In this document: piece by piece, positions 1,658-4,135 of the stretch
Layout of the letters: each line of letters opens with the position of its first letter
Position numbering within the stretch: position 1 is the first letter of the stretch
DNA from: a virus
Taxonomy: Duplodnaviria; Heunggongvirae; Uroviricota; Caudoviricetes
DNA: 6,945 nt
Strand: one strand, 5' to 3'
IMG/VR virus record: IMGVR_UViG_2778261688_000008
Coordinates: 1-6,945 of that record
Translations under genes and position numbers: made by a program
The notes under the pieces: model-generated
What the model saw: only the letters and a program-made list of their open reading frames with translations
Told to the model about the DNA's origin: nothing
Database searches by the model: none

Positions 1658-4135
1658 ATGGCAGAACAAAAAGTAAAGTTAACTGAACTCCCGGCAGCTA
1701 CAGATACAATCGACACAGCACAACTTCTGGTGAATCAAAACAGTACAGACCAGAAAATTCAAGTAACACACTTCCTACGATCTAAAAATAACCTTTCAGA
1801 CCTTGTAGATTCAGATCAGGCCAGAGCAAATCTTAATGTTCCATCAGTAGATGAAGTAAACGACAAGTTATCTGGATATATAAACGGCTCACTTTCTTTT
1901 AGTGCGGGTGGGTCTTTAGCTTCTCGCACTGACTTTATCTGGGATGAGGAGAGCAAAGCATGGTACTACTGGAGCGGAACACTTCCAAAGGATGTGCCAG
2001 CAGCATCCACACCGGATTCTACTGGCGGGATTGGTGCTGGTAAATGGGTGCAAGTTGGAGATTTAATCTTAACGGAAAAGATTGACCGCGCTTTATTCAA
2101 TAATTTTATTTATAACTTTGGTGGCATTCCAGACTACACTGGCGCACCACTATATGATGGAAATGATGCATCAAGAATTACAGCCACAGACAATACACCA
2201 ATGCTGCTGAATGCATTGACAAACGGCATTATTAAAAATAATGTTTTGCGAATCCATATCCCTGCCGGCCACTACGGATTCAGTGGTGACAAAATCATTC
2301 TTGACCCAACAACGCTACCTTACAAGAAAATCATCATTTCTGGTGAGGGTGAAGGCGTTACGATCCTTGACTATATTAAAGAGGACAACACCGGGACCGG
2401 TAACACTGAACAGGGTGATAACGCAAAAGAACTTCTGCGTTTTGAAGTTGGTTTTGACCACGTAGAGTTTCAGAACATAACGCTGAAATGTACAACTAAA
2501 ACAGGCTTTGTTAACGGCACTCCATCCAGTGACCCAAGTAACTGGGCGATTTACAACGGCACGATTTGGTTTGCTCACATCAAGCAGGCAAAAAAAGTTG
2601 TGTTGCGTTCAGTAACCACTGAACACGGTAACTATCGCTGCCTTAGCATCGATGGTATATCTGAGACTTCACCAGGCGTTACGGAACTTGAAATGCATGA
2701 CTGCACTGGGCGTTACAATACTGGTAGTGGTTTCTGGCTACGTGGGATTAAAAAATCCAGAATTTTTAACTGCTATGGCTACCGTAATGGCAATAAGGGC
2801 GTAACCGCAACAGGTTATGGCATTACTTTTAGCCAGTATTGTTCTGATATTATTATTCAGGGCGGTGCATACTACGAGAACTACAGGAAAGGAGTTGATA
2901 AACATGGTGGCATTGGCAACATCACCATGAAAGACGTGCTGATTGCAGACAACATCATGTTTCAGACATCGTTTGACCATCAGTATCTTGGTCTTTACCC
3001 TGGTGATGTCATGACTGATATGCAACTTTCAAACGTTGATATTGAGTTTGGAAGAAATCCTGATTTCTGCAACGAAGCATTGAGCGCAATAGATCTAACT
3101 TTCAGAAATCACATATCAATTGTCCTGAATGATAAGCTAATCAACGGGTCAACTGCTGGACGCCTGCGCCAGGTTCGCGCGAAAGACTGTAGTATAAAAT
3201 ACTTACAAGGTGTTACGGTACCATTTAACACGTATGTATGTATTTCAGAAATGGCGCAAGAAGCACTGCTAGATAACGTCAGCGTTGACGTCAGAGCGCT
3301 TCAACTTGACAGAACTGGAAATAAAGACGTTTACACGCTAACCACAATTGGTATTGGTGCAGATAATGCAACCTTAAACATCCACGGTGGCCAGTATCTT
3401 ACTGCTGATGGACTGGTGAGGGATCTTAACGGCAATAACAGCAACAGTCTGTTTATTGGCGCAAAAGCAAACTCTAAAATCATTATTGGTGGCAGCGCAG
3501 AATTTGACCTGGTCAACCATGTTCTGCTTGGTTCAACTGGCTCGGGACGAGCGTTTGAATATACTGGACAGCGAAAAATCGACGACTGCTCGTTCAAAGT
3601 AAGAAACTTACAGAACGTGACTCACCAGTTTAGCACCGGCGCAGGACTTGCCTGGTTAGAAAATGGTTTCTTCTTTGGAAACGCCGCCAATCAGATAAAC
3701 TATGGAGGTGCAGTGGCGCTTGGGTTTGGAGACTGTCACAACATGACACAACACAAATTTGGTGTTCATGATCGTGGAGTAACGTTCAAAATAGACAACT
3801 CAAAATTGCAAGCAGGCACACCTTGCAATATTTTAACTGCAAACCTGTATGGTAATATGAATTTACGGCTAGAAGGACGCTGCGCAAGATCTCCTGATAT
3901 ATATGAAGCTCGATGGCTAGGAAGTGCCAACACGTTTCAAGTTGTTGTTGGAAGTGATAGAATATCTAGCGGAATCACAACCGATCAAGCAATCCAATGG
4001 AATGGCAATAATACAAATCTAATAGCTAAGAAGATAACCCTCAACACAACAACCTCTCTTAGCGCCACGGAATATTACGTGGCAGAGATAAGTGCCAACA
4101 ACAACTTTACAGTAAAGTATCTTGGCACACTGTAG
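1658..4135 (+). CDS. Tailspike / receptor-binding protein with predicted right-handed parallel beta-helix (putative polysaccharide depolymerase)
   Basis: 825-aa ORF whose ATG at 1658 directly abuts the upstream TAA (1655-1657); stop TAG at 4133-4135. The central region is rich in Asn/Gly/Thr/Ile with recurring short beta-strand-like segments (e.g. GNYRCLSIDGISETSPGVTELEMHDCTGRYNTGSGFWLRGIKKSRIFNCYGYRNGNKGVTATGYGITFSQYCSDIIIQGGAYY), typical of pectate-lyase-fold tailspikes. The N-terminal ~40 aa share a motif with the preceding fibre gene. The sequence is not P22 gp9-like by recollection. Confidence 0.75.
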   Translation: MAEQKVKLTELPAATDTIDTAQLLVNQNSTDQKIQVTHFLRSKNNLSDLVDSDQARANLNVPSVDEVNDKLSGYINGSLSFSAGGSLASRTDFIWDEESKAWYYWSGTLPKDVPAASTPDSTGGIGAGKWVQVGDLILTEKIDRALFNNFIYNFGGIPDYTGAPLYDGNDASRITATDNTPMLLNALTNGIIKNNVLRIHIPAGHYGFSGDKIILDPTTLPYKKIIISGEGEGVTILDYIKEDNTGTGNTEQGDNAKELLRFEVGFDHVEFQNITLKCTTKTGFVNGTPSSDPSNWAIYNGTIWFAHIKQAKKVVLRSVTTEHGNYRCLSIDGISETSPGVTELEMHDCTGRYNTGSGFWLRGIKKSRIFNCYGYRNGNKGVTATGYGITFSQYCSDIIIQGGAYYENYRKGVDKHGGIGNITMKDVLIADNIMFQTSFDHQYLGLYPGDVMTDMQLSNVDIEFGRNPDFCNEALSAIDLTFRNHISIVLNDKLINGSTAGRLRQVRAKDCSIKYLQGVTVPFNTYVCISEMAQEALLDNVSVDVRALQLDRTGNKDVYTLTTIGIGADNATLNIHGGQYLTADGLVRDLNGNNSNSLFIGAKANSKIIIGGSAEFDLVNHVLLGSTGSGRAFEYTGQRKIDDCSFKVRNLQNVTHQFSTGAGLAWLENGFFFGNAANQINYGGAVALGFGDCHNMTQHKFGVHDRGVTFKIDNSKLQAGTPCNILTANLYGNMNLRLEGRCARSPDIYEARWLGSANTFQVVVGSDRISSGITTDQAIQWNGNNTNLIAKKITLNTTTSLSATEYYVAEISANNNFTVKYLGTL

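Follow-up and report, generated by a model that had tools for sequence, protein, structure and literature searches.

A tailspike C-domain and gtrC that travel together in a temperate Enterobacter phage locus

The locus described here raises the question of whether a phage tailspike and the O-antigen-modifying operon beside it belong together or are neighbours by position only. The window, by which we mean the whole stretch of DNA analysed, comprises 6,945 nucleotides (nt) of a virus of the Caudoviricetes (IMG/VR record IMGVR_UViG_2778261688_000008) and carries the gene for an 825-residue tailspike. An earlier note, made from the sequence letters, had placed this gene next to a gtr operon, and a full gtrABC set was indeed found adjacent to it and convergent with it. 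The arrangement itself is already known from P22, BTP1, Hf4s and Shigella phages. A tailspike gene followed by an O-antigen modification gene has been described in Lederbergvirus and Uetakevirus phages (PMC10408124), and so has the mobility of gtrABC between phage types (PMC2629481). New here are the uncharacterised families to which the tailspike and GtrC belong, and direct evidence that they are transferred jointly in a block of about 3.6 kb.

Tailspike C-domain and gtrC exchanged as a unit

Comparison of prophages showed, at the level of DNA alignments, that the C-terminal module of the tailspike and gtrC have been inherited or exchanged as one ~3.6-kb block, bounded by the backbone-specific N-domain on one side and the conserved gtrB on the other. 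The nearly identical copy lies in a prophage with a different baseplate, encoding Baseplate_J, Wedge1 and Collar proteins (L018; loci compared carry L numbers). Its tailspike gene encodes a 941-residue protein, of which residues 264-941 are 99% identical to residues 148-825 of the window tailspike, while the N-terminal part is of unrelated sequence. The next gene is a gtrC that is 98.8% identical. In blastn alignments, the near-identity of the DNA began abruptly at about position 2117, at the codons for FGGIPDYTG, just past a linker (residues 139-145) with low pLDDT (predicted local distance difference test) in the structure prediction, and ended at about 5760. Between 4100 and 5758 only 17 mismatches were counted; beyond this the identity fell to 81-91% in gtrB and to 69-79% in gtrA. 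The hairpin between the two convergent genes was kept in this copy.

Two further comparisons showed the same linkage. In a lambda-like siphovirus (L007), the tailspike C-domain is 70% identical to that of the window, and the adjoining gtrC product is 58% identical over its full length. A second pair was found in L008, which has the backbone of the window, and L027, which has another; their C-domains are 91% identical, their gtrC genes 92%, and their tailspike N-termini are unrelated. Among the four prophages sharing the backbone of the window, the tailspike N-domains are 74-81% identical and the GtrB proteins 90-98%. The C-domains of these prophages are mutually unrelated, save for 35% identity between L002 and L008, and their GtrC proteins are mutually unrelated as well. 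In the four prophages, tailspike and GtrC have sizes of 825 and 496, 827 and 545, 594 and 492, and 666 and 422 residues.

Among the temperate loci examined, every one whose C-domain reaches 58% identity to that of the window also has a gtrC of the window's family, and no discordant combination of C-domain and gtrC was found. C-domains that are 35% identical accompany unrelated gtrC genes. We also considered a deeper co-divergence of the two genes and rejected it. In lambda-like and P22-like prophages, relatives of gtrC at 31-33% identity adjoin tailspike genes with unrelated C-domains, and thus the pairing holds at close range only. The tailspikes of L039 and L040 carry a Head_binding domain, unlike that of the window.

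Proposed functional pairing and its alternatives

In gtr systems, glucose is first attached to undecaprenyl phosphate by GtrB; GtrA then moves the lipid-linked sugar to the periplasmic side, where GtrC transfers it to a particular site on the O-antigen (PMC2629481; PMC4413052). In the window, gtrA, gtrB and gtrC are transcribed toward the tailspike gene, and GtrC would attach a sugar at one specific site in the O-antigen repeat unit. The first ~150 residues of the tailspike would fasten the protein to the phage baseplate, and the remaining β-helix and C-terminal β domain would bind, and likely cleave, a surface polysaccharide, by which the particle would reach the outer membrane. In a lysogen, the changed glycan would block re-adsorption and superinfection by phages of the same specificity. 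We consider it probable that the locus as a whole is best explained in this way, as the tailspike of a temperate Enterobacter phage together with a gtr operon that alters the glycan recognised by that tailspike. By analogy with the systems compared below, we infer that the receptor is the O-antigen in the form lacking the modification made by GtrC, and that the product of GtrC would resist the window tailspike, protecting the lysogen against superinfection.

The closest parallels in arrangement are BTP1 and P22, for which it has been shown experimentally that gtr modification can block the prophage's own tailspike (PMC4413052). As in the window, the tailspike gene and the gtr operon of these phages are convergent and adjacent at the end of the prophage. 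However, BTP1 and P22 are podoviruses with endorhamnosidase tailspikes that carry the P22 head-binding domain, and the GtrC of BTP1 is a putative acetyltransferase. The window in contrast combines a Tail_spike_N domain, a contractile tail, a β-helix unrelated in sequence to theirs, and a GT-C glycosyltransferase of a small undescribed family as GtrC. SfI, SfII, SfV, SfX and Hf4s share with the window the three-gene operon with a variable third gene, and Hf4s has an O-antigen-specific tailspike together with a seroconversion cluster that protects its lysogens. At the DNA level, gtrA and gtrB of the window were 82-85% identical to those of serotype-converting phages (SfI, SfII, SfV and Hf4s in the case of gtrB). 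The gtrC proteins of these phages are nonetheless unrelated to that of the window, and the Shigella phages have tail fibres instead of this spike.

The main alternative is that the two genes are adjacent by position alone. In temperate phages, conversion genes accumulate at the end of the late operon, next to the attachment site and integrase, and the C-domain and gtrC would hitch-hike between two anchors, namely the N-domain or the domain junction on one side and gtrB on the other. The tailspike receptor could then be some glycan with no relation to the target of GtrC, such as capsule or colanic acid. The high conservation of gtrB and an extra recombination joint inside it, described below, are in keeping with such hitch-hiking. 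Against it stand the lack of any discordant pair among the temperate loci examined, and the functional coupling shown experimentally in the same arrangement for BTP1, P22 and Hf4s. We therefore regard a purely positional association as unlikely. The functional pairing proposed by the earlier note gained comparative support from the ~99% identical block in L018, the diverged pair in L007, and the joint change of both genes across the four prophages of one backbone.

Several observations nevertheless weigh against a functional pairing. In Rahnella sp. BIGb0236 (L012, 6726-9494), gtrABC lies among ordinary chromosomal genes, its gtrC being 56% identical to that of the window, with no phage genes within 8 kb. 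In L032 (7873-12254), gtrC is broken into small open reading frames (ORFs) beside an intact tailspike gene. In Escherichia coli D9 and D4, both genes sit in a remnant that is unable to build virions. The number of independent exchanges is also small, with three backbones for the window pair and two for the second pair. Finally, the co-transfer could be simple hitch-hiking of adjacent variable segments between conserved recombination anchors.

On a broader and more tentative reading, which we find possible though we would not lean toward it, the C-domain together with gtrC makes up a portable "attack and shield" cassette that is exchanged as a unit among unrelated phage types, namely two myovirus backbones, lambda-like siphoviruses and possibly others. 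The crossovers would then lie at the domain junction of the tailspike and inside the near-universal gtrB. If this were general, the type of C-domain would predict the glycan position modified by the partner GtrC, and the reverse. The behaviour of the cassette suggests a simple rule for predicting the receptor specificity of prophages. If the tailspike and GtrC act on the same glycan, they would give a handle on an Enterobacter O-antigen type, and the tailspike could find use as a depolymerase or in typing. In that case gtrC would be a resistance determinant to watch in phage therapy of the Enterobacter cloacae complex.

Fold of the tailspike and evidence for catalysis

The predicted monomer fold of the tailspike and its structural matches to other tailspikes revealed a right-handed parallel β-helix body, as the earlier note had supposed. 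The protein has moderately high contents of Gly (10.2%) and Asn (8.5%). No tandem repeats were found at the DNA level in the window, so the repetitiveness of the protein is structural. Near the N-terminus, Pfam identified the virion-attachment domain Tail_spike_N (PF18668) at residues 66-135 (nt 1853-2062, E 3.5e-26). A Pfam Beta_helix match at residues 310-432 fell below threshold. In PHROGs, residues 143-699 matched phrog_30017 (E 1e-109), which has no assigned function, and the N-terminus matched tail-spike families.

The same note had stated that the protein does not resemble P22 gp9, and this also held. There was no PF09008 match, and the P22 tailspike was absent from the PDB sequence matches, which were confined to the N-domain. 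The protein is therefore a β-helix tailspike not of the gp9 type. A sequence search of the PDB found no solved homologue of the C-domain. The top Foldseek matches were TSP1, TSP3 and TSP4 of phage CBA120 (PDB 4oj5, 5w6f and 5w6h). These share Tail_spike_N with the window protein by sequence (E to ~1e-9), as well as the layout of an N-domain followed by a β-helix. However, their β-helices show no sequence similarity to that of the window, and they belong to a lytic Kuttervirus and are specific for E. coli and Salmonella O-antigens. With AlgE4-type mannuronan C5-epimerases/lyases and the RbmB lyase (PDB 2pyg, 8ja4 and 9ozd), the likeness is one of fold only.

The distribution of conserved residues bears on whether the β-helix is an enzyme. 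An exhaustive search of 1.84 billion protein representatives yielded 49 clusters for the tailspike family, about 12 of them full length and about 25 in which the likeness is limited to the first ~290 residues. Of the 81 near-invariant positions, about 70 fall within residues 159-474. They include D238, E242, K277, K281, R327, E407, R410, K411, D414, H416 and D431, at a spacing of about one rung, and the invariant polar cluster also includes Tyr residues, with the motif E407-N-Y-R-K-G-x-D414-x-H416. A conserved half followed by a variable distal part is the pattern expected of a conserved active site. On these grounds, the tailspike binds a surface polysaccharide and most likely cleaves it, as a hydrolase or a lyase, with catalysis deduced from fold and conservation.

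The β-helix might instead be a binding-only adhesin without glycanase activity. Such a protein would fit the sub-threshold Beta_helix match, the missing solved homologue of the C-domain, the silence of NCBIfam, and the failure of Pfam, NCBIfam and a family-only profile to assign any catalytic family. However, we consider it quite improbable, given the clustering of the near-invariant positions at one-rung spacing and the ~25 further clusters that share solely that conserved half. The tailspikes structurally nearest to that of the window are, moreover, mostly enzymes.

Membership of the AlgE4 epimerase/lyase family was considered separately and rejected. One profile (A1) matched PDB 2pyg with E 1e-5. 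This match was discarded because unrelated tailspike C-domains mixed into A1 had produced it; the family-only profile (A4) matched no AlgE entry. The AlgE-type catalytic motif is YG(F/I)DPH(D/E), and in the tailspike only the dipeptide pattern D414-x-H416 resembles it.

Operon, phage context and relatives

The features of the window are listed in Table 1. The ATG of the tailspike gene abuts the TAA stop of the upstream gene, with AGGA about 10 nt 5' of it. Scans of the window for tRNA genes and Rfam families found none, and NCBIfam and PADLOC gave no matches for the tailspike, gtrC or their neighbours.

Table 1. Coordinates of the features in the window
Feature	Position	Strand	Description
Baseplate-type structural gene	1..756	+	251 aa; phrog_6277 E 2.7e-91, weak baseplate PHROG matches
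Conserved tail-module protein	765..1001	+	78 aa, unassigned role; phrog_24124 E 4.8e-50
Gp10_C-type tail/baseplate protein	1001..1657	+	218 aa, repeated HxH motifs; PF21939 E 1e-8, tail-protein PHROG matches
Tailspike gene	1658..4135	+	825 aa, ATG start, stop TAG 4133-4135; coordinates exactly as in the earlier note
Tailspike N-terminal anchoring module	1658..2116	+	aa 1-~153; backbone-specific, outside the exchanged block
Tailspike receptor-binding and presumed enzymatic module	2117..4135	+	right-handed β-helix aa ~155-680, C-terminal β domain aa ~684-825
Specificity cassette, ~3.6 kb	2117..5760		tailspike C-domain, hairpin, gtrC, last ~90 nt of gtrB; ~99% in a phage of different backbone
Hairpin	4139..4173		perfect 14-bp stem; between convergent stops (tailspike TAG; gtrC TAA 4180-4182, - strand)
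gtrC	4180..5670	-	496-aa membrane glycosyltransferase, GT-C fold, presumed serotype-specific; model and Foldseek
gtrB	5663..6586	-	bactoprenol glucosyltransferase (GT2), 307 aa; PF00535 E 1.7e-29, phrog_841 E 2.9e-165
gtrA	6583..6945	-	flippase-type small membrane protein, 120 aa; PF04138 E 3.4e-13, phrog_2224 E 2.8e-70

The intergenic hairpin has a folding free energy (dG) of -29 kcal/mol (z -5.2), and none of 200 shuffled sequences folded as well. A scan for consensus terminators did not flag it, and it is without a T-run. It is probably a two-way transcription stop.

The operon consists of GtrA, GtrB and a variable third gene for a polytopic membrane glycosyltransferase, the composition of a gtrABC operon. 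It is tightly packed, with gtrB overlapping gtrC by 8 nt and gtrA by 4 nt, and the start codon of gtrA is the last triplet of the window. The third gene has a low GC content (0.31-0.35) and gave no Pfam, PHROG or NCBIfam match. Its product is taken to be GtrC from its position, architecture and predicted fold. The AlphaFold2 model (pLDDT 87.7, predicted template modelling score 0.90) is a multi-helix membrane protein, and Foldseek matched it to DPY19, STT3/PglB, ArnT and AftA with probability 1.0. Residues D37 and E38 are invariant across a set of 27 homologues, and a search of 5.8 billion proteins brought up just 30 relatives.

The phage to which the tailspike belongs is a temperate, contractile-tailed Enterobacter phage. 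In an E. cloacae contig (L002), the tail module comprises an E217-type sheath, tube, chaperone, tape measure, Dit-like protein, baseplate and sheath initiator. The order is sheath, tube, tape measure, baseplate, Gp10_C-type protein, tailspike, gtrCBA and a UmuD-like gene, with the tailspike as the last tail gene. Up to about position 6000, the window and this contig differ at no more than 4 sites per 250 nt. Beyond that point, in the 5' half of gtrB and throughout gtrA, the divergence is 14-21% (35-52 mismatches per 250 nt). This jump marks another recombination joint inside gtrB, and the gtrA protein of the window is just 83% identical to that of the contig.

The upstream genes were compared across the same backbone (L002, L008, L031 and L033). 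The 251-residue protein is 97-100% identical and the 78-residue protein 95-99%. The Gp10_C-type protein is the only other variable backbone gene, with 46-64% identity between prophages compared with 95-100% for its neighbours, and it may be a second host-recognition component. In the related prophage L032, an integrase comes next after the corresponding region. We also noted that the L032 tailspike is the same 594-residue protein as in L031, and that an RVT_1 reverse transcriptase of the group II intron type adjoins its gtrA.

The N- and C-terminal modules of the tailspike have different relatives. The first ~140 residues are 64-82% identical to many tailspikes of Enterobacter, Hafnia and Erwinia phages that bear other C-domains. 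The C-domain occurs at 86% identity in SU10-like podoviruses, at 58% in a P2-like myovirus and at 39% in a siphovirus, and lytic phages carry it without gtr genes. The tailspike family is shared by phages of both lifestyles, lytic and temperate, that infect Enterobacter and related bacteria. The closest phage homologue is gene 101 of EspM4VN (Agtrevirus, Ackermannviridae), in which the C-terminal ~670 residues are 56% identical to residues 154-823 of the window protein. EspM4VN however is lytic and without gtr genes, and its 1109-residue protein has an N-terminus of the Ackermannviridae type and belongs to a four-spike branched complex. The gene 101 product was detected in virions by tandem mass spectrometry, and by homology the window tailspike may be present in virions as well. 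The authors of the EspM4VN study noted that gene 101 resembles proteins of Enterobacter and E. coli annotated as hypothetical. As this closest homologue is known solely as a virion protein, the suggestion that the specificity of the window tailspike is uncharacterised proved correct. NCBI lists an identical protein under the name [quoted passage not shown]. Among species-representative genomes, a single-protein query gave no match, and an alignment-based query found Serratia sp. Ag1 only.

The block was also found in 2 of 5,426 complete E. coli genomes, those of strains D9 and D4 from dogs, which match positions 244-6945 of the window with one mismatch. In these strains, two frameshifted ISEc52 copies (18823-19992 and 26790-27960 in D9, L001) flank the block, and a truncated integrase and sbcB adjoin it. 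There are no head or tail genes beyond the tailspike and its three upstream neighbours, and gtrCBA is retained. The block looks like a prophage remnant with the appearance of a composite transposon. As the window begins 243 nt outside the IS junction, it derives from a genome other than these. Although this setting, with its frameshifted insertion sequence (IS) copies, truncated integrase and missing head and tail genes, would suit a decaying relic without present function, we consider it very improbable that the tailspike gene is one, since its ORF is intact and identical or nearly so in many assemblies (42 member sequences, several contigs), an apparently complete tail module surrounds it in E. 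cloacae, and the window extends 243 nt past the left IS junction of D9, at 244.

Some further features of these genomes were noted. In the O-antigen cluster of D9 (L036, 12965-14391), the wzx flippase gene ("O116 family") is annotated as frameshifted, and this remnant-bearing strain may be without a normal O-antigen. RefSeq names the 78-residue protein (765-1001) in D9 "phosphoglycolate phosphatase" and GtrA (6583-6945) "bactoprenol glucosyl transferase"; both names look wrong because of the matches to phrog_24124 and PF04138. In L002, a perfect LexA-box-like palindrome (TACTGTATTAATATACAGTA, 15361-15380) precedes a 129-residue Peptidase_S24 (UmuD-like) gene (15402-15791). This gene is divergent from gtrA, and the same gene neighbours gtr in prophages of the myo-, sipho- and P22-like types. 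The 113-nt intergenic region of L002 that holds the palindrome contains two GATC sites 13 nt apart, of interest since Salmonella gtr operons phase-vary through Dam methylation.

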